Below are positions 5,660 to 28,821 of a DNA stretch of 32,000 nucleotides, one piece after another (within the stretch, counting starts at the first letter, position 1; the number at the start of each line of letters is the position of its first letter). The notes under the pieces were generated by a model that was given only the letters and a program-made list of their open reading frames with translations, ran no database searches and was not told where the DNA came from. The stretch is from contig NZ_LT934425.1 of assembly GCF_900232105.1 (NCBI RefSeq), forward strand, positions 2,520,001 through 2,552,000. Reading direction: 5' to 3'. Made by a program: the position numbers and the translations under genes. This DNA comes from Candidatus Kuenenia stuttgartensis (GTDB lineage: Bacteria; Planctomycetota; Brocadiia; Brocadiales; Brocadiaceae).

Positions 5660-5737
<78 letters not shown>

Positions 5738-5769
5738 ATTCATTTCAGCTAAGCCTTATATACATTTGT

Positions 5770-5844
5770 GGTGAGCGTAGCTCAGTTGGTTAGAGCATTA
5801 GACTGTGGCTCTAAGGGTCGCGGGTTCGAATCCCGTCGCTCACC
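5770..5844 (+). tRNA. tRNA-His (anticodon GUG) with encoded G-1
   Basis: An extra 5' G precedes acceptor GTGAGCG/CGCTCAC. Anticodon stem is TTAGA/TCTAA with loop CTGTGGC. T loop is TTCGAAT. Confidence 0.9.
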
Positions 5845-6085
5845 CATTTTTTTCAATTCCTGATTGATACATCTTTCGTTATTCTTTAATAATAAAAGAA
5901 CAGCGTATTTAAATACATTAAGTGTCTATTAGCGGTTTTGGACGCCATATTTATTTCGTGATAGAATTTTTGCGGGGTGAAATCAGGTTGACATTTGTCC
6001 TATCTTCTATAATAAATTGCTTGGACTTTATTTTATTGTCCAATTTTTGATGTATGAACGACTGCGCCGACATTGCGTTTTTTTT

Positions 6086-6163
6086 GCGCTCGTAGCTCAA
6101 TTGGATAGAGTGGTGGACTTCGAATCCAAAGGTTGCCAGGTTCAAGTCCTGCCGGGCGCGCCA
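6086..6163 (+). tRNA. tRNA-Arg (anticodon UCG), CCA encoded
   Basis: Acceptor GCGCTCG/CGGGCGC has one T:G pair. The anticodon loop is CTTCGAA and the T loop is TTCAAGT. One mismatch at the base of the anticodon stem and one in the T stem lower confidence slightly. Confidence 0.8.
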
Positions 6164-6193
6164 TTCTTAAATTTTTTCAATAAATAACCTTTT

Positions 6194-6269
6194 GCGCCCT
6201 TAGCTCAGATGGTAGAGCAACTGACTCTTAATCAGTGGGTCGGAGGTTCGATCCCTCCAGGGCGCACCA
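6194..6269 (+). tRNA. tRNA-Lys (anticodon CUU), CCA encoded
   Basis: Acceptor GCGCCCT/AGGGCGC, anticodon stem ACTGA/TCAGT with loop CTCTTAA, T arm GGAGG-TTCGATC-CCTCC. Confidence 0.9.
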
Positions 6270-6490
6270 ATAAGATTGTCGTTTTTAGTACGTCGGGCAT
6301 ATCGTTTAATTGAAATTAAAACAGTGCCATTACGATGAGGGCATTGAAAACTCAATACCTTGCAAATGTAAGATTAAAACTGCTCAGTCGTTGTTTATGA
6401 TGGAAGACAATAGGTCTCTGTTTTAGTAAAACGCGATACTGGCTTAGCAAAATTGCAAGAAGTATTTAAACGTAATTGCTGTTTATTCGG

Positions 6491-6519
6491 TTGATATATT
6501 TTTATGCCGCAATTGTAAT
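6491..6519 (+). promoter_or_regulatory. candidate sigma70-type promoter for tRNA-Leu/tRNA-Gly
   Basis: TTGATA (6491-6496), a 17-nt spacer, then TGTAAT (6514-6519), about 40 nt upstream of tRNA-Leu. This is a pattern match only. Confidence 0.3.
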
Positions 6520-6561
6520 TTTAATTGAGAAATTTTATTTCTTGATTTTAAACAGAGGTCT

Positions 6562-6643
6562 GCGAGGGTGGCGGAACTGGCAGACGCGCAAGACTTAGGA
6601 TCTTGTACCTTAACGGTGTGGGGGTTCGATTCCCCCCCTCGCA
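6562..6643 (+). tRNA. tRNA-Leu (anticodon UAG), class II with long variable arm
   Basis: GCGAGGGTGGCGGAACTGGCAGACGCG resembles bacterial tRNA-Leu. The anticodon stem is CAAGA/TCTTG with loop CTTAGGA. The C-run at 6632-6638 has 7 C where a canonical 5-bp T stem plus 7-bp acceptor needs 8. Confidence 0.85.
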
Positions 6644-6663
6644 TAAATATGCGAATATAAAAA

Positions 6664-6738
6664 GCGGGTGTAGCTCAGTGGTAGAGCATCACGTTGCCAA
6701 CGTGAATGTCGTGGGTTCGAGCCCCATCACCCGCTCCA
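6664..6738 (+). tRNA. tRNA-Gly (anticodon GCC), CCA encoded
   Basis: Acceptor GCGGGTG/CACCCGC, anticodon stem TCACG/CGTGA with loop TTGCCAA, T arm GTGGG-TTCGAGC-CCCAT. Confidence 0.9.
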
Positions 6739-13824: not shown

Positions 13825-15240
13825 TCAGCAATACGGCATACTTTTCTGAAGTGTATGCAAGATCTCGTGACAGAAGTCGGTCAAGGTGTTATCCCTTGCG
13901 CCCATTACCAATATACAGTCCCCCTTTTCTACTGTTCTTACTATCTCCGGTATAATATCCCCTCTTTTTTCTACAAAGAATGCATTTCTGCCGCTTTTCC
14001 CTATTTCACGGATAAGGTCTGCAGAGGAAATCTCTTTGCTGACAGAACCGCCAATATAATAGATTTCAGGCATAAAAAGTACATCTTCAGGGGAAAGTGA
14101 TTGTATAAATGCATTTATCAGTTCCTCTCTCATAAAACGAGCGGGAAAGAATCCATGTGGCTGAAAAACTGCAATTACCCTGTTCCCTCCAATTTTTACT
14201 GCGCGTATTGCCGCTGCGATTTTTTCAGGATTATGGGCGAAATCGTCTATCACTTTTATGCCATTGTATTCCCCGATATTATCCATCCGCCGCTGTACGC
14301 CTTTATACTCATACAATGCGGCGGCAATTTCATTATCCTTTATGTTCATATGCCTTGCTACGGAAATTGCAGCCAATGCATTTGATACGTTATGAATTCC
14401 AGGCAGTTTTAATTCAAATGATTGTCCATTAATGTCAAATGTCGAGAGGCATGGTCTGTTTATTATGTTGGAAGCATAAATGTCTGCGGATTTTCTTAAG
14501 CCAAACGTTATGGTATTCTTGTGTCTGAAAGGTATTTTTTTTAGTTCCGGACAATCATCATTAATAATAAGCAAATCCCGGGTATTTTGAGAAAATGTTT
14601 CAAACAATTTTGAGATGCTTTCAATTGGTTTGTGGTCTTTTGACATATTTGTAATGATGGAGATTTTTGGTGTGTAATTGACGATACTCCCGTCGCTTTC
14701 ATCCGCCTCAATAGCAACAATATCAGAATCGCCTACCTTTGCATTGCCAGGAAAGTCAGGAGTAAGATAATTTTTAATACACCCGCCCACGATTATTGTG
14801 GGAGACATTCCCGCATGGTCGAGCACATAGCCCACCATACTGCTGACGGTGGTTTTACCGTTTGTTCCTCCAACGGCAATTCCAAATTTAGTATTAAACA
14901 TTTCAGCAAGAATGTTCGAGCGTGTTGTAATTTTTTTATTGAGGGAAAGCGCCTTCTTAATATCCGGATTTTGCTCCTCTATTGCGGAAGAAACAATTAC
15001 AACATCCGTTGTCTCTTTAATGCCTGAACCATCCTGGGGGGTCAGGTTGATGCCAAGGGAAGAGAGTTTTGAAAATATATTACCTGCAATTTGATTATCA
15101 AAATTCCTGTCAGAGCCGCTGACATGGTGTCCCATTTCTTTCAATACCTGTGCTATAGCACTCATTCCAATGCCGCCAATACCAACTAAGTGGTAGTAGC
15201 AAGGATTTTCGATAGGATTTTTCTTTAATGGATGTTTCAT
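13825..15240 (-). CDS. murC: UDP-N-acetylmuramate--L-alanine ligase (Mur ligase family, MurC-like)
   Basis: 471 aa. The N-terminus HLVGIGGIGMSAIAQVL is typical of MurC. The P-loop is GGTNGKTTVSSM. Also present are EADESDGS and the Mur ligase C-terminal domain DDFAHNPEKI. It stands alone rather than in a dcw cluster, so a paralogous Mpl-type role cannot be excluded. Confidence 0.8.
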   Translation of the reverse strand: MKHPLKKNPIENPCYYHLVGIGGIGMSAIAQVLKEMGHHVSGSDRNFDNQIAGNIFSKLSSLGINLTPQDGSGIKETTDVVIVSSAIEEQNPDIKKALSLNKKITTRSNILAEMFNTKFGIAVGGTNGKTTVSSMVGYVLDHAGMSPTIIVGGCIKNYLTPDFPGNAKVGDSDIVAIEADESDGSIVNYTPKISIITNMSKDHKPIESISKLFETFSQNTRDLLIINDDCPELKKIPFRHKNTITFGLRKSADIYASNIINRPCLSTFDINGQSFELKLPGIHNVSNALAAISVARHMNIKDNEIAAALYEYKGVQRRMDNIGEYNGIKVIDDFAHNPEKIAAAIRAVKIGGNRVIAVFQPHGFFPARFMREELINAFIQSLSPEDVLFMPEIYYIGGSVSKEISSADLIREIGKSGRNAFFVEKRGDIIPEIVRTVEKGDCILVMGARDNTLTDFCHEILHTLQKSMPYC

Positions 15241-15597
15241 GGGCGCATTAGAATATATCTTGCAATGTTTTGATAGTCAAAATATTTATTTTGTAAAGAG
15301 GTCTTTTTGCTTTATATTCGTTTCTTGACAACGGAAATGTATCCATTTAAAATAGAACTTTTTACAGATTTTCCTGCATTTCACTTAACGCTTAAACATT
15401 GTCTAATCGGGGTGTATCCTGACATAGTTGATGATAAAATGGGGAAAACAGGATAGCAAAAGTACAAATAATTTATACCAAAACCAAAGAGCCTTTTCCT
15501 GAAAATACCGTTTTTGTAAACTATTTTTAAAAGCCGTTTATGCAAACAATAAACCACCATGCCTGCAAAAATCATACAGGGAAAGGAGATGTGACCG

Positions 15598-15987
15598 TTG
15601 GCTCTATTGGGGAAACATATTATTCTGGAAATGAAGGGTTGCTGCAGAGACATTATTAACAATGTCTCCTCAGTGAAAAACATCCTTGAAAAGGCAACCG
15701 AGATTTCGAATGCAACATTGGTCGACGTGATATGCCATCATTTTAGCCCTTATGGTATTACCGGAGTTGCTATTCTGGCTGAATCACACATATCAATTCA
15801 CACATGGCCGGAGCACGAATATGCAGCGGTGGATATTTTTTTGTGCGGGAGCACTATGAATCCTCATAACGCGGCCTCGTACATTTCACAAGCATTTCAT
15901 GCAAAAGAAACCTTTACTATGGAATTAAGAAGAGGCGATTTTCTTCTCCATGAAGCCGAAAACAGTTTGCCGTCAATATACCCTTGA
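15598..15987 (+). CDS. speD: S-adenosylmethionine decarboxylase proenzyme (small bacterial class)
   Basis: TTG start 8 nt after AGGAGA. GKHIILEM.., the self-cleavage region AILAESHISIHTWPE and AAVDIFLCG are diagnostic. The gene is followed by speE. Confidence 0.85.
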   Translation: MALLGKHIILEMKGCCRDIINNVSSVKNILEKATEISNATLVDVICHHFSPYGITGVAILAESHISIHTWPEHEYAAVDIFLCGSTMNPHNAASYISQAFHAKETFTMELRRGDFLLHEAENSLPSIYP

Positions 15988-16017
15988 TCAATATCAATCT
16001 TTATTACAAAAATAACC

Positions 16018-16959
16018 ATGGAAAAATTACCCTTAAACTGGATAGATGATTATTTCAGCGACTATGAACTTCACAAACTGGCATTCAAAAACATTGTGTA
16101 CGAGGCAGAATCAAAACATCAAAAAATAATTGTTGTTGATACTTATAGCTTTGGCAAATGCCTTATACTTGACAATGAATTCCAGTCGGCTGAGTCAGAT
16201 GAGTATGTGTATCATGAATCCCTGGTGCAACCTTCCCTTATAATGCATCCGGAGGCGCAAAGCGTCCTTATTATTGGCGGAGGCGAGGGCGCAACCCTGA
16301 GAGAAACGCTTCGCCATAAATCGGTAAAAAAGGCGGTAATGGTTGACATCAATGACGAGGTAATCTCGTGTGCGAAAAAAAGCCTCCCCTCATTTCATGA
16401 AGGGGCTTTTGATGATGAACGAACCTCGCTTGTTATTGAAGACGGGAGGAAATATCTGGAGAATACAGATCAACAGTTTGATGTTATTATTATTGATGTA
16501 AATGACCCTGTTGGCGGCAGCCCTTCTGCCATGCTTTTTACGAGGGAATTTTATCAGATCGCCGCAGGCAGGCTAAAGAAGGACGGCATTGTTGTTGTTC
16601 AGTCCGGCGCGGTTTCTGTTACGGATAATGACCTGTTTTCCGGTATATTCCATACGCTAAACGATGTATTCCCGCACGTATTTCCATACACCACCTACAT
16701 ACCGTCGTATGCATGTCTGTGGGGTTTTACCATAGCAACGCACAATCTGGGGGATTTAGACATCACCGGAGAAGAAATCGATTTCAGAATCGGGAATCGG
16801 GTTAATTCAGCATTGCGCTATTATGACAGCATTACCCATCATTCGCTTTTCAACTTGCCAAAATATTTGCGTGAAGAGTTAAAGAAAAGCAAACACATCA
16901 TACGTGACAATGCACCTCTCATTAAACAATACCCCGGCGTTTCATCGGAAAAGATTTAG
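16018..16959 (+). CDS. speE: spermidine synthase (polyamine aminopropyltransferase)
   Basis: 313 aa with QKIIVVDT..GKCLILDN..Q..E.DEYVYHE, LIIGGGEGATLRE, VDINDEVI and IIIDVNDP. Confidence 0.9.
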   Translation: MEKLPLNWIDDYFSDYELHKLAFKNIVYEAESKHQKIIVVDTYSFGKCLILDNEFQSAESDEYVYHESLVQPSLIMHPEAQSVLIIGGGEGATLRETLRHKSVKKAVMVDINDEVISCAKKSLPSFHEGAFDDERTSLVIEDGRKYLENTDQQFDVIIIDVNDPVGGSPSAMLFTREFYQIAAGRLKKDGIVVVQSGAVSVTDNDLFSGIFHTLNDVFPHVFPYTTYIPSYACLWGFTIATHNLGDLDITGEEIDFRIGNRVNSALRYYDSITHHSLFNLPKYLREELKKSKHIIRDNAPLIKQYPGVSSEKI

Positions 16960-17485
16960 CGCCTTGTTCCATTTCCAGCAACCATTGCTTGACGTGAATC
17001 CCCGTTGCATATCCCGTTAATTTGCCATTTACCCCTATAACCCTGTGGCAGGGAATGACGGGCGGCAAAGGGTTTTTATTGTTTGCCATCCCTACTGCCC
17101 GCGCTGCCTTAGGATTACCAATCTGTTCTGCCACCCATTTATAGGAACGGCATTCACCGTAAGGGATTTCCCGCAGTTTGTCCCATACCTTCCTCTGGAA
17201 AAGAGTTCCGATGCTTAAATCAAGCGAAAAATCAAATACAACCTTTTTCCCTTCAAAATATTTTTTTAAAACAGCGATTTCGTGTTTCAGGAAAGCATCA
17301 TTTTCGTGAAGTCTTGTATAGATTGCACATTGGTCATGGAGGGGCAAATCATCCCCTGAGGTGAGCGGAAATGCTATTCTGCAGATACCTTTTTTTGTTT
17401 TTGCTATGTACACATATCCAAGGGGGGTGGGGAATGTGCTAAAATGAATCTCTTTATAATTATTTGTTCGACCCTTTTTGTCCAA
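16922..17485 (-). CDS. ogt: methylated-DNA--protein-cysteine methyltransferase
   Basis: 187 aa with the active-site IPCHRVIG motif, plus YGECRSYKWVAEQIGNPKAARAVG. The start could be downstream of 17485. Confidence 0.85.
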   Translation of the reverse strand: MDKKGRTNNYKEIHFSTFPTPLGYVYIAKTKKGICRIAFPLTSGDDLPLHDQCAIYTRLHENDAFLKHEIAVLKKYFEGKKVVFDFSLDLSIGTLFQRKVWDKLREIPYGECRSYKWVAEQIGNPKAARAVGMANNKNPLPPVIPCHRVIGVNGKLTGYATGIHVKQWLLEMEQGAKSFPMKRRGIV

Positions 17486-18221
17486 ACGTCAACCGGTACC
17501 CTTTTATAAATCCCATAATGATTAAAGTAAAAAAAAGTAGTGTCGCAAGTACGGAAATGGAGAGCGTGGTTATTGTCCACAGCTCTTTTATAAAATAACT
17601 CCACCATGAATTTTTTAGCAAAGATACACCAAATTTTTCAAGAAAGAAGAGTATAGCAAAAAGGATGGCGAATCCGGGTATCAGATATTTAAAATCCTGT
17701 TTATGCGGGGACATTGATACGGTAAATACAATAATAGCAAAAAGGAACAGTACATGCCGCACTTCTTCTATATGAAACTGGCTGCGAAAAGAATGAAAAG
17801 TAATCCATACCGAATCAAGCAAATACCGGATTAAATTGAAAAGTCCATTAAATGAAAGAGGAATTTTTTCGGGAAATGCATTGTTTACGCGAATGGGATT
17901 GGACAGAATACCTGATATTAATAAGATGGAAAACGCACAGCCAAAAAGAGGCGCAGATGTGATAATAAAGTCGAAAACAAAGGGGATCTTTGGTTTATCA
18001 TACTTTATCCCCGTGTTATCCGTTCGAAACAAATTAAGTTCGCTGATGGTGGTTCCCGTAATAAGACATAAAAGAGCATGGCTAAGTTCGTGAACAATAG
18101 CTCCGGGTAGGAGAAATCCTTTAAGAAACTTGTTATTGATATATTTAACCCATAGCTCATTCGTGGCAAAACTTAGGAATAGTACCAAAATAATGCCTAT
18201 TGCAAGTGAGAAATATATCAT
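17460..18221 (-). CDS. polytopic membrane protein with HExxH motif (putative zinc metallopeptidase)
   Basis: 253 aa with about 6 hydrophobic helices. HELSHAL follows the first helix. No closer family assignment is possible by eye. Confidence 0.5.
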   Translation of the reverse strand: MIYFSLAIGIILVLFLSFATNELWVKYINNKFLKGFLLPGAIVHELSHALLCLITGTTISELNLFRTDNTGIKYDKPKIPFVFDFIITSAPLFGCAFSILLISGILSNPIRVNNAFPEKIPLSFNGLFNLIRYLLDSVWITFHSFRSQFHIEEVRHVLFLFAIIVFTVSMSPHKQDFKYLIPGFAILFAILFFLEKFGVSLLKNSWWSYFIKELWTITTLSISVLATLLFFTLIIMGFIKGYRLTFGQKGSNK

Positions 18222-18460
18222 AGTGCACTTTTACGAAACCGTTTTAGACGATAAGGATAACAATGCCAGTCAAAAATCATGATCTTCAACAGCATTCTTC
18301 ACACCTTGCTCTACATTGTCATCTCACGGCTTTTCACAAACTTACCGACGTTGATAGTGGGCACAGGTGAATTTCGATATTATTTGCGGCATAGAGTATC
18401 AGAGCTTTTGTTCTATGTCAATCCAAAAAAGAAATCAATATAAGTAACTGAGGTGAAAAA

Positions 18461-18484
18461 ATGTATAATGTATAATGTATAATG
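18461..18484 (+). repeat. tandem heptamer (ATGTATA)x3, creating three overlapping TATAAT boxes
   Basis: ATGTATAATGTATAATGTATAATGT lies about 95 nt upstream of tRNA-Ala. Confidence 0.9.
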
Positions 18485-18577
18485 TTTAAAATTATCAAAA
18501 AAATAGTGAAATTGAATCAAGAGATTGTTATATTGAGAAAAAATATACCTTCTTTTAAGCTGTATTGAAATAGGGGC

Positions 18578-18653
18578 GGGGGCATAGCTCAGTTGGGAGA
18601 GCGTCTCGTTCGCAATGAGAAGGTCAGGGGTTCGAATCCCCTTGTCTCCACCA
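18578..18653 (+). tRNA. tRNA-Ala (anticodon CGC), CCA encoded
   Basis: Acceptor GGGGGCA/TGTCTCC includes the G3:U70 Ala identity pair. The anticodon loop is TTCGCAA. The T arm is AGGGG-TTCGAAT-CCCCT. Confidence 0.9.
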
Positions 18654-18686
18654 TTTTATATAATCATCACTACAAGGAGCGATTGC

Positions 18687-18875
18687 ATGAAAATTTCTAT
18701 TGAAAGCCCGTCAAGAATAAAGATGACTCCGGAAACGGAACATGAAAAAGAGAGCCTTGAGGCGTTGTGGAAGATTCTTATACGATGTGAAAAAGAGAGC
18801 AAGACTCTTTGCCCTATCGGTGAATACATCCCCTCAAAGAATGATGGCGCCAATTTTGTCATACAGGAACACTAA
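18687..18875 (+). CDS. small hypothetical protein (62 aa)
   Basis: ATG at 18687 lies 7 nt after AAGGAG (18674-18679). The product is MKISIESPSRIKMTPETEHEKESLEALWKILIRCEKESKTLCPIGEYIPSKNDGANFVIQEH. No motif recognised. Confidence 0.4.
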   Translation: MKISIESPSRIKMTPETEHEKESLEALWKILIRCEKESKTLCPIGEYIPSKNDGANFVIQEH

Positions 18876-19032
18876 TTGGTTCTAAAGCAGGTGAGGTTTT
18901 TAAAACATCGCTTGTTTTATAGCCGGTTTAAATTATTTCATCTCTCGTTTCCATTTTAGCCATCAAGGGCAGAGGTCACAACGAGGCATGAAAGTAGTCC
19001 TGATTGTGATTAATACCGTATTCCCAGTGGTT

Positions 19033-19803
19033 TCAAGTTTTTTTTGTAACATAATAAATCCACGCGCTATGGTTATCGCTATCGCCAGGATGTAATGTAT
19101 TGCCAAAGATATCGTACATTTCCACCGTTTCTAGTCCAATATCTTTGTTTTGTAATAGTTGATTATTTTTATTTATATAGTAAGTTAATAAAGCATAACT
19201 ATGTGCCTTATCATTAATAATTGCGTATGTTTCGTTAAACTGTTCCCGCCTTTTATTTTTTAAAAAATTAATCACTGAGCTAAAATATTTTGCAAAGAGT
19301 TTTGCCTGAACGTATGGGCAGGGTGCAAAAGACATCCTGGGAAAGGAATTTTCAAGGCGGTAATTTCTATTATGAGAAGAAAACACAAATACCCCATCTT
19401 TTTTTAGTATTCTATGAATTTCCTTTAAGGTTTTTAGCCGGTTATTATTGCCCATAGAATCTAATCCATTATATGAAAATAATACAAAATCAAACGTGTC
19501 ATCCTCAAAAATTTTCATATTTCTGACGTCATGATGGAGAAAAGTTGTATTGGCGAATTTTTCCTTGCAGAGTGCTATCATATCAAGAGAAAAATCCATC
19601 CCAATGTAATGCTTGCTTAATTTCGCCAGCGGTAAAGTTGTCCTTCCGGCGCCACATCCGATATCAAGTACCTGTCTGTCGGCAATATATTCCTTGTATT
19701 TTATAAAAATCATTACTTCGGCTATTTGCAATGCTGTAAGGGCATACTCTAGCACCGTGCGTTTCTTTTCATAACATCTCTTGTTTATAGCTTCGTAAGG
19801 CAT
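19033..19803 (-). CDS. class I SAM-dependent methyltransferase
   Basis: 256 aa with motif I VLDIGCGAGRTT, the acidic loop GMDFS and post-I/II features (FDFVLFSYN, LKKDGVFVFS). Confidence 0.8.
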   Translation of the reverse strand: MPYEAINKRCYEKKRTVLEYALTALQIAEVMIFIKYKEYIADRQVLDIGCGAGRTTLPLAKLSKHYIGMDFSLDMIALCKEKFANTTFLHHDVRNMKIFEDDTFDFVLFSYNGLDSMGNNNRLKTLKEIHRILKKDGVFVFSSHNRNYRLENSFPRMSFAPCPYVQAKLFAKYFSSVINFLKNKRREQFNETYAIINDKAHSYALLTYYINKNNQLLQNKDIGLETVEMYDIFGNTLHPGDSDNHSAWIYYVTKKT

Positions 19804-20616
19804 TTTTCCCCTTTCAAAGAATCCTTTTCGTATCCTCTCAAAATTTCATCGTATTAAGATAGATATAGATATAGATTATAGATAAAGAATCCCTGATTTT
19901 TATAAAAAGTGACAAAAAATTAAGTTGAGAAACGAAAGACAGCAAGTTGTTTTCTTATCATAAATCAGGATAACGATAAAGCAAAAATCTATTTCTGTTA
20001 TCACTACTGCTTACTGCTTGCTGCTTTCGCATCACTTATCATCAGGCTCTTTCGCGCATTTCTCCAACTCTTGGAAACATGTCAATGTGGATTTTACCCT
20101 CCCATGTGGCGAAGTGCATCGGCTTAATTTCCTGCTAAAGCAGATTTTATTATTTCCCCCCCCATGCGGCAGCATGGAGCTTGCACATGGAATGATTTTT
20201 CAAAAAATTAAAATGGTACATGGTTTTTAAATTTTAACGAATGAAGAATATATCGATATGACCGACTTCCGCCGGACAATGACCATATATAGACATGGTT
20301 TAACATGTTGCTGTCGCATTGTTTATTATACTTGCATTGCTATAAGATAGATATCCGGTGACCGTTTCGCGTCTATCTCCGTAAGTGATATTAATTTAAG
20401 AAAATCCGTATGCCGTTATTCACCAATAGGTTATAAACTAATAAACATAAAAATAAAGACGGCATAGATGTTGCTTGCCTTTTGTTCAATCTTTTGCAAT
20501 AGGTTGTTGCAAAAATTATGGGCAATTTTCAAATGGACCTGGAATTCAGTCTTAAACTCAAAAAAAGAAAAATTTTGAGGCCTTGCCTCAGAAATAGTTG
20601 TTGTCAGCGCGTAATT

Positions 20617-20643
20617 GTGCAAATTGACAATCATAATTTGCAC
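20617..20643. promoter_or_regulatory. perfect 9-bp inverted repeat GTGCAAATT-N9-AATTTGCAC (candidate operator upstream of hdh)
   Basis: The palindrome is read directly. It contains TTGACA and lies about 115 bp upstream of the predicted -35. Further TTGCAA motifs occur at 20493, 20506 and about 20698. Confidence 0.3.
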
Positions 20644-20756
20644 AAGGTAAAGCAGGGTGTTTAGGCTATATTCTGATGTGCAGGCACTATCAATTATTTT
20701 TGCAATCAGACATCCGTCGGCAAAATTCAAAGAGTAAAAATTATTCGCTTTTTGTA

Positions 20757-20784
20757 TTGACTTGAAAAGCAGATTAAGTATAAT
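20757..20784 (+). promoter_or_regulatory. near-consensus sigma70-type promoter for hdh
   Basis: TTGACT (20757-20762), a 16-nt spacer, then TATAAT (20779-20784). This implies a 5' leader of about 190 nt before ATG 20984. Confidence 0.55.
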
Positions 20785-20983
20785 AATCTGTCCGAAAAAA
20801 ACGATGGTAAGGAAGTTCAGTCTACAGTTAATTTTAGAGATAGCGTTTAACAGTTTAGGTTTAGTGTTTCGGAAAGGGGGTGGTTTGAGGGGTTCCAAGG
20901 TGGTGAAGTATGTTTATTGTTCCGCAATCAAACGTGATTGTGGTATGAGAGAAATGCGAGAAAGGAGGAAGATAAAAAGTATC

Positions 20984-22732
20984 ATGCGTAAATTTTTGAA
21001 AGTTACATTGGCATCAGCGTTGATTGGTTGTGGCGTTATAGGTACTGTTTCAAGCCTTATGGTGAAAGAAGCTAAGGCTGTAGAAATTATCACTCACTGG
21101 GTACCACACGAAGTTTATGGTATGCCTGGGGAGCCTGATAATAGTGGTAAGGTATTTTTCTCTGGTTTGAAAGCAAAATATATGGGTTACCCAAAAGATG
21201 CACAGAGGTCGCCATACCCGGGAAAATACAGCAAGTTTTGGAAGACATTGCCTGCGTACCGTTATTACATCCCGGATTATATGTACAACAGGGATGAGGT
21301 AAGGCCTTCAAACCCGATTAAGGGCACATTTAAGCTGGAGCAGTGTGTTGCTTGTCACTCAGTTATGACTCCCGGCATTGTAAGGGATTATAATAAGAGT
21401 GCTCATTCAAAGGCAGAGCCGGCACCAACTGGTTGTGATACCTGCCACGGCAACAACCATCAGAAGTTAACTATGCCTTCATCAAAGGCTTGCGGGACAG
21501 CGGAATGTCACGAAACGCAGTACAATGAGCAAGGGCAGGGAGGAATTGGTTCCCACGCATCTTGTTCCAGTTTCGCTCAGGTTGAGTGTGCATGGTCAAT
21601 TGAAAGGCCACCCGGAGATACAGCGGGTTGTACTTTCTGCCATACCAGCCCTGAAGAAAGGTGCAGCACTTGCCACCAGAGGCATCAGTTTGATCCGGCA
21701 GTTGCAAGACGCTCTGAGCAATGCAAGACCTGTCACTGGGGTAAAGATCACAGGGATTGGGAAGCTTATGATATAGGTCTTCATGGTACAGTATATCAGG
21801 TTAACAAGTGGGATACGGAACAGTTTGACTTCTCAAAGAAGCTTTCTGATGCTGATTACGTTGGTCCTACCTGCCAGTACTGTCACATGAGGGGCGGGCA
21901 TCATAACGTGCAGAGAGCAAGTATCGTATATACCAGTATGGGTATGTCGATGGCTGATCGTGGTGCACCACTCTGGAAGGAAAAGAGAGACCGTTGGGTA
22001 TCTATCTGTGACGACTGTCATTCACCAAGATTCGCCCGCGAGAATTTGCAGGCGATGGACGAGTCTGTTAAAGACGCTAGTTTGAAGTATCGTGAAACAT
22101 TCAAGGTAGCGGAAGATCTTCTTATTGACGGTGTACTAGACCCCATGCCAAAGGATCTTTGTCCTGATTGGTCAGGTCAGCACATCTGGAGTTTGAAGAT
22201 TGGGGCTTACCACGATGGAGAAGCTTACGGTGGAACTACCGGCGAATCCGGAGAGTTTAGAATGTCAAACTGTACTGATGTGGAGAGGCTTTGTTTTGAA
22301 AGTGTTGGTTACTTCCAGACATACATTTACAAGGGCATGGCGCACGGCTCCTGGAATGATGCTACCTACTCAGACGGTTCATTCGGTATGGATCGTTGGT
22401 TGGTCAACGTAAAGCAGAATGCTTCACGTGCAAGAAGGCTTGCTGCTTTGGAAAAGAAGGTTGGTATTTCATGGCAGCCTGAGCAGTTCTGGAAAACAGG
22501 CGAATGGCTGGATCAGTTGACCGGGCCATATATCGTAAAGAATCACCCTGGCAAGACGATCTTCGATCTTTGTCCAGATCCAGGCTGGTTAGACACACAT
22601 CATGCACCTGCTGAAGAGGTTGAGTACATTGAGAGAAAACTCAAGGAACTCGGCATTACCGCTGGTTCACACAGTGCGCATCATCATGAATCTGGCCATG
22701 ATCCAGCTGCAAGATCCATGAAAGAGCATTAA
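20984..22732 (+). CDS. hdh: octaheme hydroxylamine-oxidoreductase-family protein, assigned to hydrazine dehydrogenase (HDH; HZO cluster 1)
   Basis: 582 aa from ATG 20984 with a Sec signal MRKFLKVTLASALIGCGVIGTVSSLMVKEAKA. There are eight heme c sites: CVACH, CDTCH, CGTAECH (CX4CH), CTFCH, CSTCH, CKTCH, CQYCH and CDDCH. The DNA at 21722-21739 and 22175-22192 matches the HZO cluster-1 primers hzocl1F1/hzocl1R2 as I recall them. The start is uncertain (ATG 20945 and 20954 are also in frame); AAGGAGG is at 20962-20968. Confidence 0.85.
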   Translation: MRKFLKVTLASALIGCGVIGTVSSLMVKEAKAVEIITHWVPHEVYGMPGEPDNSGKVFFSGLKAKYMGYPKDAQRSPYPGKYSKFWKTLPAYRYYIPDYMYNRDEVRPSNPIKGTFKLEQCVACHSVMTPGIVRDYNKSAHSKAEPAPTGCDTCHGNNHQKLTMPSSKACGTAECHETQYNEQGQGGIGSHASCSSFAQVECAWSIERPPGDTAGCTFCHTSPEERCSTCHQRHQFDPAVARRSEQCKTCHWGKDHRDWEAYDIGLHGTVYQVNKWDTEQFDFSKKLSDADYVGPTCQYCHMRGGHHNVQRASIVYTSMGMSMADRGAPLWKEKRDRWVSICDDCHSPRFARENLQAMDESVKDASLKYRETFKVAEDLLIDGVLDPMPKDLCPDWSGQHIWSLKIGAYHDGEAYGGTTGESGEFRMSNCTDVERLCFESVGYFQTYIYKGMAHGSWNDATYSDGSFGMDRWLVNVKQNASRARRLAALEKKVGISWQPEQFWKTGEWLDQLTGPYIVKNHPGKTIFDLCPDPGWLDTHHAPAEEVEYIERKLKELGITAGSHSAHHHESGHDPAARSMKEH

Positions 22733-22773
22733 TAACGTAACTTTTTTCATTAGTATAAAAGATGTTTATGAAA

Positions 22774-22807
22774 GGAAGCTGTGCAGTAATGCACAGCTTC
22801 CTTTTTT
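22774..22807 (+). terminator. strong rho-independent terminator after hdh
   Basis: A 12-bp perfect stem GGAAGCTGTGCA / TGCACAGCTTCC has loop GTAA and is followed by TTTTTT (22802-22807). Confidence 0.85.
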
Positions 22808-22909
22808 ATTATAAATGAGTTGAAATACAAGAAATTTTACCTATACTTTCGTATACTTAAACATAAGCGACAAATATTCTACTTTTTATTTTCGTTGGAG
22901 ATTCCGGCA

Positions 22910-24121
22910 ATGAAGTTAAAGTTTTTTTACCTGTTACTATTACTCTCTATGGTTTGTATCTCATTTGCATGTGGCAAACGGGAGAAACATATTGAGCGAG
23001 CAAACACTTTGGCAAAGGAAAATAAATTAGAAGAAGCACTTAGTGAATATACGAAAGCTATTGAGTCGGATAAGTCTTCCGAAATAGCATACTATGGCAG
23101 AGGTGATGTTTACTTTAAGCTGGGGAAATTAGAAGATGCTGCTAAGGATTTTCGAAGTGCTATTGATATAAAACCGGGCTTTATTGAGGCGCACAAAAAA
23201 CTAGCAGAAACTTTTGATAAAATAGGCGCACCGCCAGATGAATTCCAAAAAAGAATTATTGCAATTGAAAATGAACCTGATAATCCGTTAACGCATGTGG
23301 AACTGGGCCTTTTTTTACATAAATTAGAACAAGATATCGATGCCATAGAAAATTATAAACATGCGCTGTCACTTGATCCAAATAACCCGTATATAATGTT
23401 TAACCTCGGCGTTGGTTATTTGGATATGGGCTTATATGAAGATGCAGAAAAAATATTTAGCGATGCCACTAAAATCGACGAGAATTATGATAACGCCCAT
23501 TATAATCTTGCGATTGCATTGCATAGGCAGGGTAAAATTGATGAGGCGATAAAAGAGCTAAATACCACTCTTGAAATCAATCCAAAATATTCCAACGTTT
23601 ATGTTGTATTTGGTTTAATGAGTTTAAGAGAGAAAAAATTTGAAGAAGCCCTCGTCCATTATAATAAAGCGATGGAAATAAACCCGGAAAACATAGAAGC
23701 CCGGTATCAGAGGGCAATTGTCTATGCATTACAACAGCGGTACGACGAGGCCTTGGAAGAAAACAGGGAAGTATTGAGAAGAAATCCGAAACATGCTAAT
23801 GCCGCATACAATATCGGTACGATTTATCATAGAATGGATCGGATGGACAAGGCAATGGAATGGTATGATAAGATTACAAAGAAAATCGACCCTCTTTATG
23901 AAGACGCCTATTACAACAGGGCGCAAATTTATAGTATGCAAGGGGATCACAGTAAGGCATATAGCGACTATATGTCTTATTCTATGATTACAAAATGGAG
24001 AACGGGGAAAGACCCTGCTGTCGTTTATAATCAGGATGAAATAAAAGAATTATTCACGACTGCCGTACCTGCTTTGCAAGAAGAAGTGCGTGATCAAAAA
24101 TTAGAATTGAAAACGAATTAA
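22910..24121 (+). CDS. tetratricopeptide-repeat lipoprotein
   Basis: I prefer ATG 22910. MKLKFFYLLLLLSMVCISFACGK has a lipobox-like SFAC. The remainder is 9-10 TPR units (e.g. AYYGRGDVYFKLGKLEDAAKDFRSAIDIKP, AHYNLAIALHRQGKIDEAIKEL). Confidence 0.8.
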   Translation: MKLKFFYLLLLLSMVCISFACGKREKHIERANTLAKENKLEEALSEYTKAIESDKSSEIAYYGRGDVYFKLGKLEDAAKDFRSAIDIKPGFIEAHKKLAETFDKIGAPPDEFQKRIIAIENEPDNPLTHVELGLFLHKLEQDIDAIENYKHALSLDPNNPYIMFNLGVGYLDMGLYEDAEKIFSDATKIDENYDNAHYNLAIALHRQGKIDEAIKELNTTLEINPKYSNVYVVFGLMSLREKKFEEALVHYNKAMEINPENIEARYQRAIVYALQQRYDEALEENREVLRRNPKHANAAYNIGTIYHRMDRMDKAMEWYDKITKKIDPLYEDAYYNRAQIYSMQGDHSKAYSDYMSYSMITKWRTGKDPAVVYNQDEIKELFTTAVPALQEEVRDQKLELKTN

Positions 24122-24135
24122 ATAGACATCATCTG

Positions 24136-25185
24136 TTATCGTTCAAATGCATAATTGAACGATTCTTCAGTTAAGTGTGGTTGGTGTTTCAGCATAAAAC
24201 AGTCGAGTTCTTTTAATAATGTCATCTTCTCTTTTGCAGTCTGGAATGTTGCCTGAAAGGAATTCCTGGCGAGCCGGTAAATATCGTTATGATCTAAACG
24301 CAAAGCTTCCTGGACAGCAAGGAGGTTTTCATTTATGTATCCGCCAAAATAAGCGGGGTCGTCAGAATTGATGGTGACATGCAGCCCCATATCAAGCATC
24401 TTTTTTAAAGGATGCATCTTCAAAGAATCAAATATATGTAATTTTATATTAGATAAGGGGCACACCGTCAAAGGGATGCTCTCTGCCTTTAACAGAGCCA
24501 CTAATTGCATATCTTGTATGCAGGCAGTTCCATGGTCAATACGCAATGCTTTCAAATAATGTAAAGCCTGCCAGATGTATTCAGAAGGGCCTTCTTCTCC
24601 TGCATGCGCAACCGTGAGAAATCCTTCCTGCCTGGCTCTTGCAAAAACAGAAGCAAATTTTTTGGGAGGATACCCAACCTCGTATGAATCCAGGCCAACG
24701 CCAATAATCCATTCTCTATAGGGCAAAGATAACAACAGTGCTTCCATTGCAGACGCTACACTCATACAGCGTTGAAAACACATTATTAACCTCGCAGAAA
24801 TACCAAGTTTCTTTTCTCCATCCATCATGGCTCCTAAAATACCTATAAATACGGACTCAAACGATATACCTCTTGTTATGTGCGCTTGCGGGTCAAAAAA
24901 CATTTCTGTATGCCGTATATGTTGTGAGGATGCTTTTTTCAGATAGTTCCATGTTATTTCATAGAAATCCTGTTCGGTTAATAGCACCTGGATACCGCTG
25001 TAATATATCTCCAAAAAAGACGAGAGGTCTTCAAATGTATATGCCCTTCGCACATCTTCTACCGATTTATACGGGAGTTTTATTTTGTTCCTCTCTGCAA
25101 TGGCAACCATAAGTTGGGGTTCTAATGTGCCCTCTATATGAACATGAAGCTCCGCCTTTGGCATACCGCAAATAAATTCATTCAT
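24136..25185 (-). CDS. add: adenosine/adenine deaminase family protein
   Basis: Motifs are PKAELHVHIEGTLEP (HxH metal site), HAGE and INSDDPAYFGGY. I prefer the ATG at 25185 (MNEFICGMPKAELH); the ORF-track TTG start at 25236 adds 17 residues. Confidence 0.85.
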   Translation of the reverse strand: MNEFICGMPKAELHVHIEGTLEPQLMVAIAERNKIKLPYKSVEDVRRAYTFEDLSSFLEIYYSGIQVLLTEQDFYEITWNYLKKASSQHIRHTEMFFDPQAHITRGISFESVFIGILGAMMDGEKKLGISARLIMCFQRCMSVASAMEALLLSLPYREWIIGVGLDSYEVGYPPKKFASVFARARQEGFLTVAHAGEEGPSEYIWQALHYLKALRIDHGTACIQDMQLVALLKAESIPLTVCPLSNIKLHIFDSLKMHPLKKMLDMGLHVTINSDDPAYFGGYINENLLAVQEALRLDHNDIYRLARNSFQATFQTAKEKMTLLKELDCFMLKHQPHLTEESFNYAFER

Positions 25186-25259
25186 ACGTTTTCGAATTAA
25201 CTCTCCACTATGAGGGAAAGAATCTTTTTTCCCCAATATTTAGTAAATAAAAATGTATG

Positions 25260-25286
25260 CCTTTTTCGAGTCCTTACCGAAAAAGG
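25260..25286 (-). terminator. palindromic hairpin between the glycosyltransferase gene and add (possible terminator)
   Basis: CCTTTTTCG-N9-CGAAAAAGG is a perfect 9-bp stem. On the minus strand the T-rich tract follows only after 6 nt, so the terminator assignment is weak. Confidence 0.3.
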
Positions 25287-25405
25287 TGATGCTTTAAATG
25301 CAGACGTAATTATTGCAAGAAACAGCGTATTACAAGACATTGACAAAAATTTACTACTGTTTTGGTGTCGTGTGTAGTCAACAAAAACAGGAGCTATTCC
25401 AATAC

Positions 25406-26665
25406 CTATTCCTTTTTATATTTTTCTATCAAATAAGGTTTTTGTTTTTCAAACTCCATTGCCTGTAATTCTATGATGTCTTCTGCTTCTGTGGAATCCA
25501 TTTCCTTCACTTCACGGCAATATGATGCTGTTCGTCCGAAATAGAGGGGCGTTAACATGTCAACAAGCCGCCTTCTGTTCCTTTGCCAGTGGTTATACGT
25601 AAAGGCAAAGTCGCACAATATCCTTGCCCAAAGGTCTGAAGGGAAATGTATCTCTCCGGTTTTGTTGAAATCTATTGAAATATCATATAAACGGTTAAAA
25701 TTCTCAGCATCAAGTATCTGTTCATAAAAGGGTTCAAATTGTTCAAACCCATCGCTGAATTCTGCCAGTAATTTTGTAAAATTAACCGATACAGGCTCAA
25801 CCTTTGCCGCCTCGCCGGTAATTCCAACGGTTTCTATATCCACAGTCTTTTCCGCTTGTTTCCACTTTGATTCATATTTACTCATCAGATAATATAAAGT
25901 ACTGATAACCTGCTGAAACATGGGGCCAAGGTCCGCCGCCGGGTCTTTTGCATTATGAACCTTTGTTCCCAAATGCGCCTGCACGATTTTAAACCCTTCA
26001 TTAAGGGCAGTAGTAGTCATCCAGACGTCTATTCCGAAACGGGCAACATCTGACTCCCACACATCCTCGTTTACATAATATGCCGCCAGGTCGCCGCAAA
26101 ATCCAAAATCTCCGCCAATGGGCTGCCGGATTTTTGCGCCATATAAAGCACGGGTAAGCGGATAAACAATGTTGTTTGTAATGGTGCCATCATATTTATG
26201 GCGAAGATATAAAGGGGCAACAAAACCTGCCTGTTTGTTTATAATGGGGTCAGCAAGCATCTTAATCCATTCCGGTGTAATGCTCCTCAAATCAGCATCA
26301 ACAACAACGATGGCGTCTGCCTTCAATAATTGGGCAACCTCGAAAATTGCCCGGAATGCCGTTCCCTTTCCAGGAGTACCCCGGTAAATCGTTACGCGGC
26401 GCTCAATGCCGTCAGGAATGGTTGCGGAGTAAGCCTTTTCTCGTGTATCGTCAAGGGAACCACCATCGGAAACAAATACAGCGCATTTTTTATCGGGGTA
26501 ATATTTTTTTAAACCTTCAGCGGATACTGCCACAACATGCGAAATGGTGTCTTCACAATTATAGCAAGGAATGCCGACAATTATATCCACCTCCTGCATT
26601 TTACTTATCCACATGTGTACATTTTGACGAACGGCTGATGAGTACTTCTTTTTTAAATTGATCAT
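25406..26665 (-). CDS. GT-A fold glycosyltransferase (family-2-like), candidate second sugar transferase of the glucosylglycerate-type pathway
   Basis: 419 aa with IVGIPCYNCEDTI, VSDGGSLDDT and VVVDADL (DxD). It lies on the same strand, 115 bp downstream of the GpgS-like gene. The specific function is inferred from context only. Confidence 0.6.
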   Translation of the reverse strand: MINLKKKYSSAVRQNVHMWISKMQEVDIIVGIPCYNCEDTISHVVAVSAEGLKKYYPDKKCAVFVSDGGSLDDTREKAYSATIPDGIERRVTIYRGTPGKGTAFRAIFEVAQLLKADAIVVVDADLRSITPEWIKMLADPIINKQAGFVAPLYLRHKYDGTITNNIVYPLTRALYGAKIRQPIGGDFGFCGDLAAYYVNEDVWESDVARFGIDVWMTTTALNEGFKIVQAHLGTKVHNAKDPAADLGPMFQQVISTLYYLMSKYESKWKQAEKTVDIETVGITGEAAKVEPVSVNFTKLLAEFSDGFEQFEPFYEQILDAENFNRLYDISIDFNKTGEIHFPSDLWARILCDFAFTYNHWQRNRRRLVDMLTPLYFGRTASYCREVKEMDSTEAEDIIELQAMEFEKQKPYLIEKYKKE

Positions 26666-26780
26666 GAAAATCCCCCCCCTTCTTTTTGTTTATCCCCGGT
26701 TAATTATAAAATTACTCTGTATCGATGCACAATCTTTACCCTACTCCATATGTCCGAAAATGTAAGGTATATTTTTCAGA

Positions 26781-27998
26781 TTAACGCGTTTTTGTATTAT
26801 CAGCTTCTACTGCAGCAATTAATTTATTAAAGAAATCGGGGATTGCAGAAATAATCCTGTTCCAATTTGGAATAAAAGGTATCCCCGATGGGTCATTTAG
26901 AAATTGTTCTCCTGCTATGCCAATACTTTTGACGAATGCGTCAACGGCATTCATTTCCTGATGACGGTCAAAAACAAGCCCGTTAATTGCAGAGTCGTGG
27001 TTGTATTTTTCAATGAATTCATGACCTGCCCTTTGGTATGTAGCCCTCAGCGTTCTGAAGCATTCACCTGAAAAAACAACACCCATACTAGCCAGATTTT
27101 TGTAAATGGACTTAGCGATGTCAATGCTCATTTTGGTAAGCCCGGTGGTTGGGTCTTCGTCAGATAACGGTTGATGTTTGTGTTCATACGTTTCACACAA
27201 ATCAACCTGGCAAATCCTTCTCATCGAACAATTTCTGTAAACTTCAGCCAAAACACCCACCTCCAGTCCCCAATCTCCCGGTATTCTGTTAATACGTGCA
27301 AGGTCGGTTGCCATTGAAAATTCTCCTGCAAGCGGATAACGAAAGCTGTCGAGGTATTCGAGGAAATCGTTATTGCCTATTATTTTTTTCAACGACCTGA
27401 TGAAAGGAGTCACAAATAACCTTGTGACACGGCCGTGCATCCGATCGGTAATACGGTGATAGTATCCTTTGCAGAATTCAAAATCCAAATTGGGATTTAC
27501 CACAGGATAGCATAATCGTGCCAAAAGTTCACGGCTATAGTTTGTAATGTCGCAATCATGCAAGGCAATTACTTTTGATTTTTCTGTCGCCAGCACATAT
27601 CCATAAGCGAGCCATGCTGACCGTCCCTTTCCGTCAATGCCCGCAGATATCTTCTCGTCCGTTAAAAGCTTATACAGATTTTGAATATTTTCTCCGTCAT
27701 TCCAGATTAATTTTGTTTCCTGAGGGAGAACCGAAAAAAATCGTTTTGCTTCGGCAAATTCGCTTTCATTAAACCGACCAAGCGTCACAACAACCTGGCT
27801 TATATACTTTACCTCCTTAATCTGTTCAACGATTCCCCGTAAAGCAGTTCCTTTCAGTTCAACGGGCGTCGCCGGCAAAACAAGCGCAACAGGCCGTGAA
27901 TAGGCATATTTTTCAATGCCATGCTCTATCTTTTCTATTGTGGTGGTGTCAAACCTGTGAATTGTGGTAATCTCACCATTTTGAAAAAAATCTCCCAT
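26781..27998 (-). CDS. glucosyl-3-phosphoglycerate synthase-like retaining glycosyltransferase (GpgS/MpgS type)
   Basis: 405 aa. The N-terminus FFQNGEITTIHRF, plus DGKGRSAWLAYGY, ALHDCDI, PLAGEF and DWGLEVGVLAEV resemble GpgS-type enzymes as I remember them. The gene is adjacent to an MPGP-family phosphatase. Confidence 0.65.
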   Translation of the reverse strand: MGDFFQNGEITTIHRFDTTTIEKIEHGIEKYAYSRPVALVLPATPVELKGTALRGIVEQIKEVKYISQVVVTLGRFNESEFAEAKRFFSVLPQETKLIWNDGENIQNLYKLLTDEKISAGIDGKGRSAWLAYGYVLATEKSKVIALHDCDITNYSRELLARLCYPVVNPNLDFEFCKGYYHRITDRMHGRVTRLFVTPFIRSLKKIIGNNDFLEYLDSFRYPLAGEFSMATDLARINRIPGDWGLEVGVLAEVYRNCSMRRICQVDLCETYEHKHQPLSDEDPTTGLTKMSIDIAKSIYKNLASMGVVFSGECFRTLRATYQRAGHEFIEKYNHDSAINGLVFDRHQEMNAVDAFVKSIGIAGEQFLNDPSGIPFIPNWNRIISAIPDFFNKLIAAVEADNTKTR

Positions 27999-28011
27999 GT
28001 TTTTCCTCTTT

Positions 28012-28821
28012 TTATAGGTCTTCGAATATCCTTAATATCTCCCTATTCCAACCTGCCGGGCCAATTCCATCGGCATAAACAAGATTTGGAAGCTGAATCC
28101 TTTTATCATAATCTCCCGTTTTTTTCCGGACAATAACGGGAACATCTACCGCGGCTAACATAGGCAGATCTATATGGCTGTCGCCAATGCCAATTGTGCG
28201 TATTTGATCATGATAATGATCGCAATACATATTGATTAGCATTCTTACTGCTTTCCCTTTGTCGGTATTTAAGCTAAAAATGTGATGAAAACGTCCTCCT
28301 TCCATAAAATTAAAACCCAAAGCATTAAATATTTTTTTGATTTTGTTAATATTTTCATGACCACTTTCTATAAAAATTGGTTCAGAATAAAGACGCTGTT
28401 TCGCTCGTATCGCGGAAGAAATATCGATTCCCGTAATAGCCGAAATTTTCCCGGGCGTTAAATCGGAAAAACCTGTTATGGCAATACCGCAAGATTCCCT
28501 TATCTTGTGTAATGCAGCTACAATTTCCTTATAGGGGGTTCCAAGCCTGACTATGCTATAGTTCCCGTTTTTTTTATCAATGACAGATTTGAAATATCCG
28601 TCCGGTATAATAATAGCACCGCCATTTTCAGGGATAAAAGGGTCTTTATTGTCCAGTTTTTCACGATATACCTCAATCTCGGCCTGTGTTTTACTCGTAC
28701 AGATTACTACAGGAATGTTACGCGCACGAACCAACGCCAGGGCCTCTTTTGCCTTTTCGAAGGAATAGGTGGTATGGTCTAACAACGTTCCGTCCAGATC
28801 AGTTATTATGATATACTTCAT
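28012..28821 (-). CDS. HAD-IIB phosphatase of the mannosyl-/glucosyl-3-phosphoglycerate phosphatase (MPGP/YedP) type
   Basis: 269 aa with motif I IITDLDGTLLD, motif II VICTSKT and motif IV GIGDSHIDLPML. It follows the GpgS-like gene with a 13-bp gap. Confidence 0.75.
   Translation of the reverse strand: MKYIIITDLDGTLLDHTTYSFEKAKEALALVRARNIPVVICTSKTQAEIEVYREKLDNKDPFIPENGGAIIIPDGYFKSVIDKKNGNYSIVRLGTPYKEIVAALHKIRESCGIAITGFSDLTPGKISAITGIDISSAIRAKQRLYSEPIFIESGHENINKIKKIFNALGFNFMEGGRFHHIFSLNTDKGKAVRMLINMYCDHYHDQIRTIGIGDSHIDLPMLAAVDVPVIVRKKTGDYDKRIQLPNLVYADGIGPAGWNREILRIFEDL

Follow-up and report, generated by a model that had tools for sequence, protein, structure and literature searches.

We analyzed a 32,000-nucleotide (nt) stretch of the Candidatus Kuenenia stuttgartiensis genome (contig NZ_LT934425.1, positions 2,520,001 to 2,552,000), hereafter the window, in which an earlier note had singled out a stand-alone gene for hydrazine dehydrogenase (HDH). 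The open reading frame (ORF) of this gene, hdh, occupies 20984–22732, from the ATG at 20984 to the TAA at 22730–22732, and encodes a product of 582 amino acids. Unless another strand is given, all coordinates are window positions on the forward strand. A methyltransferase gene of opposite orientation and a tRNA-Ala gene are found upstream of hdh; downstream are a gene for a TPR protein and then, on the other strand, an adenosine deaminase and a glycosyltransferase gene. No cytochrome or other redox gene adjoins hdh in the window.

The identity of the product was established at the level of the entire chain. All 582 of 582 residues match the chains of the hydrazine dehydrogenase structure PDB 6HIF over the full length, and an exact look-up of the protein returned WP_099327045.1, UniProt Q1PW30 (HDH_KUEST), and 6HIF_A, all from Ca. 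K. stuttgartiensis. The NCBIfam equivalog model for HDH, NF052343, gave 1252.9 bits (cut-off 900), compared with 390 bits for a Brocadia protein of the hydroxylamine oxidase (HOX) type that served as a control, and Pfam PF13447 matched with 122 bits. We made no observation that contradicts the identification as a hydrazine dehydrogenase.

Database lengths and genomic context point to one particular gene. In the first Kuenenia genome (KUST), kustc0694 was given as 656 amino acids and kustd1340 as 577. Extending the ORF of the window in frame back to a TTG at 20762 yields 656 amino acids, and the entry of strain CSTR1 (642 amino acids) has the same upstream extension and differs from the window protein in a single residue, C430V. 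Additionally, the region 14843–28746 is collinear with that of another Kuenenia species, at approximately 95% DNA identity. Based on the identity to 6HIF and Q1PW30, the extended length of 656 residues, the extension in CSTR1, and the collinearity, the window almost certainly carries the kustc0694 locus (= KSMBR1_2369 = KsCSTR_46980), that is, the main, highly expressed copy of hdh in K. stuttgartiensis. The kustc0694 ortholog has been listed among the four most abundant proteins (PMC7709395). At codon 430 itself (22271–22273), Cys is found in the window and in 53 of the 55 sequences of the HDH clade defined below, while Val is found in CSTR1 and another Kuenenia species.

The N-terminal extension, beginning either at TTG 20762 (656 amino acids) or, as in CSTR1, at ATG 20804 (642 amino acids), was rejected as not real and is most likely an annotation artefact. 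The sequence before the ATG is open in frame with hdh in Kuenenia only, which accounts for both database lengths; in the other genera, a stop codon at −9 to −7 interrupts the frame, and Val33 is the first residue of the mature protein. Residues 1–32 (MRKFLK...KEAKA; 20984–21079) constitute the signal peptide, as judged from the N-terminus in the published structure (PMC6469936). After its cleavage, Val33 becomes the N-terminal residue of the mature chain and sits in the active-site pocket of the neighboring monomer (PMC6469936).

Eight heme c attachment sites, beginning at C121, C151, C170, C216, C227, C247, C297, and C342, were found in the order typical of the hydroxylamine oxidoreductase (HAO) family, as the earlier note had stated. 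Seven of the eight are CXXCH motifs, and the third is CX4CH (C170-GTAE-C175-H176, TGCGGGACAGCGGAATGTCAC, 21491–21511), exactly at the residues and nucleotides that had been claimed for it. This form of the heme 3 site has been described as diagnostic for HDHs, and heme 3 is solvent-exposed and proposed as the exit for electrons (PMC6469936). Heme numbering in the HAO family follows the motif order (PMC6469936), and the fourth motif, C216-TF-C219-H220 (21629–21643), is the site of the catalytic, P460-type heme 4. In the structure of this exact protein, a covalent bond joins heme 4 to Tyr462 of another monomer, and an extra bond, a thioether and the third covalent link of this heme, joins it to Cys202 (PMC6469936); the respective codons lie at 22367–22369 (TAC) and 21587–21589. 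Since Tyr462 forms the bond to heme 4 of the neighboring subunit, it is the right choice among the four cross-linking candidates that had been proposed, Y443, Y447, Y449, and Y462. The CX4CH motif, Cys202, Trp204, the Asp255/His256 pair, and Tyr462 were all found in the window protein. Because this protein is identical to 6HIF and Q1PW30, every feature that had been flagged belongs to the characterized enzyme.

To place the protein within its family, we gathered 78 related loci, one genome per species, extracted their HAO-like proteins, added database hits, and aligned the resulting 106 distinct sequences. Fifty-five of them make up an HDH clade with 72–100% identity, whereas the other 51 HAO-like sequences reach 45% at most. 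The CX4CH motif at heme 3 is present in 55/55 clade members and in 0/51 of the others, which have CXXCH; the question of whether this motif is family-wide is thus answered in the affirmative for the HDH clade. Cys202 is likewise invariant in the clade (n = 55), and all 51 other sequences have A, F, V, or T in its place. Trp204, Asp255/His256, and an NDATY motif around Tyr462 occur in all 55 clade sequences. A neighbor-joining tree separated the HDH clade from HOX-type, reductive, and nitrifier-type HAO-like proteins in 200/200 bootstrap replicates, with Kimura distances of at most 0.34 inside the clade and at least 0.95 to the outside.

These data bear directly on two other assignments. Were the product a HOX of the kustc1061 type, or a generic oxidative HAO without specificity for hydrazine, it would share the fold family with HDH, with eight hemes, the cross-linking Tyr, and the Asp/His pair, and KsHOX (kustc1061, PDB 4N4J) is indeed the second-best solved relative of the window protein, at 378 bits. 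However, KsHOX is shorter, and the HOX-type sequences are only about 40% identical, have CXXCH at heme 3 in every case, and all lack Cys202. The hydroxylamine oxidoreductase of Nitrosomonas europaea (PDB 4FAS, 1FGJ) shares with the window protein the order of its eight hemes and a catalytic heme of the P460 type that is cross-linked to a Tyr, but it matched with 123 bits only, over residues 114–386, and the nitrifier-type relatives in the alignment lack Cys202 and carry the CXXCH form of the heme 3 site. Together with the HDH model scores (1253 against 390 bits), the undivided bootstrap support for the clade, and the identity to a characterized enzyme, these differences refute an assignment to HOX or a generic oxidative HAO, to which we attach a negligible probability. 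An equally negligible probability falls to the proposal that the gene encodes a reductive HAO-like protein of the kustc0458 type, which has no tyrosine cross-link. Such proteins belong to the same superfamily, and 6H5L gave a weak match of 129 bits; nevertheless, the column of Tyr462 is occupied by Tyr in the oxidative HAO-like proteins but by Trp in their reductive counterparts, the reductive sequences are 28–32% identical, and Tyr462 is present in the window protein and cross-linked in the structure, so this proposal is refuted as well. The claim that the gene belongs with HDH rather than with generic HAO is accordingly borne out by the complete identity to 6HIF and Q1PW30, the NF052343 score, and the clade split.

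The earlier note had argued for HDH from published primer sites. The site of hzocl1F1, TGCAAGACCTGTCACTGG (21722–21739), which overlaps the heme 6 motif CKTCH, and the complement of hzocl1R2, GGTCAGCACATCTGGAGT (22175–22192), are each the sole exact match in the window and delimit a product of 471 bp. Two reviews (PMC3082692, PMC2802487), which credit the primers to Schmid et al. 2008, print hzocl1F1 as TGYAAGACYTGYCAYTGG and the complement of hzocl1R2 as ACTCCAGATRTGCTGACC, with a 470-bp product; the sequences are the same as those in the note, and the spacing given there was also correct. When the polymerase chain reaction was simulated over the related loci, products of 461 or 471 bp arose from HDH-clade genes only, and 0/36 other HAO-like genes were amplified. 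Three outcomes that had been named as damaging to the HDH assignment, namely placement outside the HDH clade, a missing cross-linking Tyr, and wrong primer sequences, did not occur in the tree, the alignment, or the primer check.

The C-terminal tail TAGSHSAHHHESGHDPAARSMKEH (22658–22729) is His-rich as claimed, with 6 His among the last 21 residues. All 53 HDH sequences that reach the tail share this composition, with a mean His fraction of 0.26 compared with 0.045 elsewhere in the protein. The tails vary in length from 9 to 38 residues; 43/53 end in His, and the motif D[PEK][AG][AS]RS of the window protein recurs in 22/53. The tail is therefore family-wide in its composition but not in its sequence, and since it is His-rich throughout while varying in length and motif, we regard it as a conserved compositional trait. 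An ending in HH or HHH is common among HOX-type proteins, too.

The mechanism of the enzyme is known from published work on the identical protein (PMC6469936). According to that work, the HDH precursor would be exported with a signal peptide that is cleaved to give a mature protein starting at Val33; the protein would bind eight c-type hemes and assemble into covalent trimers through the Tyr462–heme 4 bond between subunits, with the additional Cys202 bond on the catalytic heme 4. Hydrazine would be oxidized to N2 with the release of four electrons, which the heme network would conduct to their point of exit, the solvent-exposed heme 3 attached at the CX4CH site. Twelve copies of Kustc1130, a small factor encoded elsewhere, would join eight of these trimers in a 1.7-MDa complex, described as (alpha3)8-beta12 with 192 hemes (PMC6469936). 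Passages of PMC7709395 and PMC12053348, both citing Maalcke 2016, credit the four-electron oxidation of hydrazine to N2 to the kustc0694 product. The N-terminal peptide of Kustc1130 is not encoded in the window. Hydrazine dehydrogenase itself is not new: the earlier reading was right, and its finding was already known from the crystallized, identical protein. Because exactly this protein has already been purified, assayed, and solved, our analysis adds nothing to its enzymology. Compared with 6HIF/Q1PW30 (Akram et al. 2019, PMC6469936), we found no difference at the protein level, and what the window adds is flanking DNA, which that paper leaves undiscussed.

This flanking DNA contains a predicted promoter, with a −35 TTGACT, a 16-nt spacer, and a −10 TATAAT (20757–20784), that agrees with the consensus in 11 of 12 positions. 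Six promoter-like matches were found in the hdh region against 6.1 expected from shuffles, and a consensus match alone is therefore weak evidence. The comparison of loci is more informative: TTGAC[AT]-N16-TATAAT lies 126–250 nt upstream of the ATG in 35/36 primary-copy hdh loci, a set that covers Kuenenia, Brocadia, Scalindua, and deeper lineages. The site that the earlier note took for a consensus promoter is thus present and conserved, although it is near-consensus rather than fully consensus.

On the other side of the gene, an intrinsic terminator (22770–22812) is indicated by its fold and its conservation. Its hairpin (22770–22805) comprises 16 pairs, 15 of them Watson-Crick and one G-T, and a 4-nt GTAA loop, followed by a T-run; the stem had been given as 12 bp, so the strong terminator was correctly recognized but its stem is longer. 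Such a hairpin and T-run recur behind the stop codon of hdh in 30/33 loci. The stem is near-invariant in Brocadiaceae, and in Scalindua it differs in sequence but is still complementary. Directly after the terminator, a promoter-like site of the downstream TPR gene, TTGAAA-16-TATACT (22820–22847; 10 of 12 consensus positions), is kept in 13/14 aligned Brocadiaceae intergenic regions. Since the promoter (35/36), the terminator (30/33), and a separate promoter-like site before the next gene recur across loci, hdh probably forms a transcription unit by itself, which would start at a strong sigma-70-type promoter, include a leader of about 200 nt, and end at the intrinsic terminator. The description of the gene as monocistronic and stand-alone holds as far as its own conserved promoter and terminator and the lack of an adjoining redox partner gene are concerned; it needs amendment because a TPR lipoprotein gene is a conserved neighbor, as described below.

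The predicted untranslated leader (20785–20983), as delimited by alignment of related leaders, contains three invariant islands amid a variable background in 18 aligned Brocadiaceae leaders. One of the conserved elements is Shine-Dalgarno (SD)-like and lies far upstream, about 110 nt before the ATG: GAAAGGGGGTGGT, also written GAAAGGRGGTGGT or AAGGGGGTGGT (20872–20884), is invariant in the 18 leaders and occurs once in the window, with 0 occurrences expected. Across the related loci (763 kb), 36 occurrences of AAGG[GA]GGTGGT were counted; hdh leaders account for 28 and those of HOX-type genes for 6, leaving 2 at other places. In both kinds of leader, it lies approximately 85–130 nt before the start codon. 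In Brocadiaceae, the HOX-type genes share with hdh both the type of promoter and this distal leader element. Second-copy hdh genes have leaders that are otherwise unrelated but contain, at a comparable distance, the similar AAGGGGGTGATT.

The distal element could base-pair with 16S rRNA at its anti-Shine-Dalgarno sequence; this pairing is deduced from sequence, since the window contains no 16S gene. No conserved start codon or ORF follows the element in the aligned leaders, and a leader peptide behind it was rejected on this basis. In Kuenenia alone, a TTG in frame with hdh lies three nt downstream of the element. The closest precedent is the STAB-SD mRNA stabilizer of Bacillus thuringiensis cry3A (PMC4113751), which is also SD-like and has no ORF behind it; in both cases, the element precedes the start codon by about 110–130 nt, and the gene is very highly expressed. 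The likeness concerns position and sequence only; 30S binding, RNase J dependence, and protection from 5′–3′ decay are features of the STAB-SD. A literature search on Shine-Dalgarno sequences in anammox bacteria returned nothing relevant.

Closer to the gene, about 40 nt before the ATG, the leader contains a small hairpin or palindrome, CCGCAATCA-AACG-TGATTGTGG (20922–20943), recognized by its fold and conservation. It forms 9 pairs in the fold of the window sequence and 8 in the consensus, and shows one compensatory change (G-C to A-U), which distinguishes only the two Kuenenia sequences from the other genera. An RNA hairpin is one reading of this element; a DNA operator or protein-binding site is an equally good one. 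A structured RNA spanning the whole leader was considered and rejected: the fold of the entire leader gained no stability over shuffled sequences (z = −0.10), no family reached its gathering score in an Rfam scan of the leader, and the one small hairpin has minimal covariation. The proximal ribosome-binding site, GAAAGGAGGA (20960–20969), is invariant in the 18 leaders. Within 20964–20983, its GGAGG core is separated from the ATG by a spacing of 15 nt, the same in 18/18 aligned leaders. A spacing of 15 nt is longer than is usual for a ribosome-binding site.

Downstream of the terminator, the TPR lipoprotein gene (22910–24121) encodes 403 amino acids. The protein matches TPR families only, and no model reached its cut-off in an NCBIfam scan. 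In 47/54 hdh loci with enough sequence, across anammox lineages, hdh is immediately followed on the same strand by an ortholog of this gene, which indicates that the gene is not an incidental neighbor. The seven hdh genes without this neighbor lack it wholly, and at least four of the seven are second copies, since a TPR-linked hdh is present in the same genome. A lipoprotein signal peptide with a conserved Cys is present in 24/24 TPR orthologs whose N-terminus is clear. Among the matches listed, two close relatives share 68–74% identity, and those that are named belong to Brocadiaceae; the next matches are generic TPR proteins at 28%. The search was saturated by such generic proteins, so a restriction of the TPR homologs to anammox bacteria is not provable from it. 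We found no paper on the hdh–TPR gene pair in the searchable literature.

The wider gene order differs among genera. In Brocadia, it runs from a protein with a domain like the alpha subunit of hydrazine synthase (HZS-alpha) through a HOX-type gene, trpB, trpA, hdh, and the TPR gene to a second TPR gene (for example, L056 63–10275). A HOX-type gene on the same strand about 4.3 kb upstream of hdh is found in many genera but not in Kuenenia. Kuenenia has lost the upstream part of the Brocadia-type arrangement. In the window, a lone tRNA-Ala gene (cgc, 18578–18653) lies 2.3 kb upstream of hdh.

The flanking features also help to decide which of the two K. stuttgartiensis copies is at hand. The second copy, kustd1340 (KsCSTR_11820), belongs to the same clade, is listed with 577 amino acids, and has been described as a gene whose transcription is confined to stress; its protein has been reported as 96.4% or >98% identical to that of kustc0694, so that the two paralogs are easily confused. 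That the window holds this stress-expressed paralog might also be argued from two short-read assemblies (L001 and L002), which call for some caution in the assignment to kustc0694: they contain the identical coding sequence and the same downstream genes, but their upstream region is different. Positions 1–5302 of L001 and 1–182 of L002 differ from the window up to 20977, and similarity begins 7 nt before the ATG. In these public contigs, hdh is preceded by genes for a sigma-54 activator, KaiC, and KaiB, and homologs of this activator adjoin the second-copy hdh genes in Brocadia. The junction reflects either a misassembly of the near-identical paralogs or a real recombination between the copies. 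Against the paralog stand the identity, not mere similarity, of the protein to Q1PW30 and 6HIF, the extended ORF that has the length listed for kustc0694 and not that listed for kustd1340, and the CSTR1 protein, which shares the upstream extension and differs in one residue. Furthermore, second copies in Brocadia and Scalinduaceae are without the conserved promoter, leader, and TPR neighbor of primary copies, whereas the window has the promoter, leader, terminator, and TPR neighbor typical of the latter. The kustd1340-type assignment is close to refuted, and we consider it highly improbable; the assignment to kustc0694 is retained. As to the control of second copies, a strict −24/−12 sigma-54 pattern had no match upstream of the second-copy hdh genes or in L001 and L002; by eye, a GG-N10-GC box is visible in two of the printed Brocadia second-copy upstream sequences.

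Taking the kustc0694 locus as a whole, we tentatively propose that it constitutes a conserved module for expression and biogenesis. The distal element might act as a STAB-SD-like stabilizer or as a standby site, and in this way help to keep the expression of these anammoxosome cytochromes very high, and the TPR lipoprotein might be an HDH-specific factor for maturation, assembly, or membrane tethering. The compared loci show that the element and the neighbor are conserved; both functions are conjecture, and we hold the proposal as a whole to be possible but rather unlikely. No description of such a module was found in the searchable literature. Anammox bacteria contribute a large share of Earth's fixed-nitrogen loss, and HDH makes the N2 that they release. 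Beyond the original finding, the distal SD-like element common to hdh and HOX-type leaders and the TPR lipoprotein neighbor are modest leads that bear on the expression and assembly of the most abundant cytochrome in anammox bacteria. For organisms without a genetic system, the comparison of loci additionally provides a set of promoter, leader, and terminator that is likely to be strong.

Two further features of the window lie at a distance from hdh. A decayed group II intron occupies 1153–2405, with fragments of the reverse transcriptase/maturase distributed over several frames (1153–2236) and a match to the Rfam group II catalytic intron family RF00029 at 2252–2405. Six tRNA genes (Arg-tct, His, Arg-tcg, Lys-ctt, Leu-tag, and Gly-gcc) are clustered at 5660–6738, just before the trigger factor gene.

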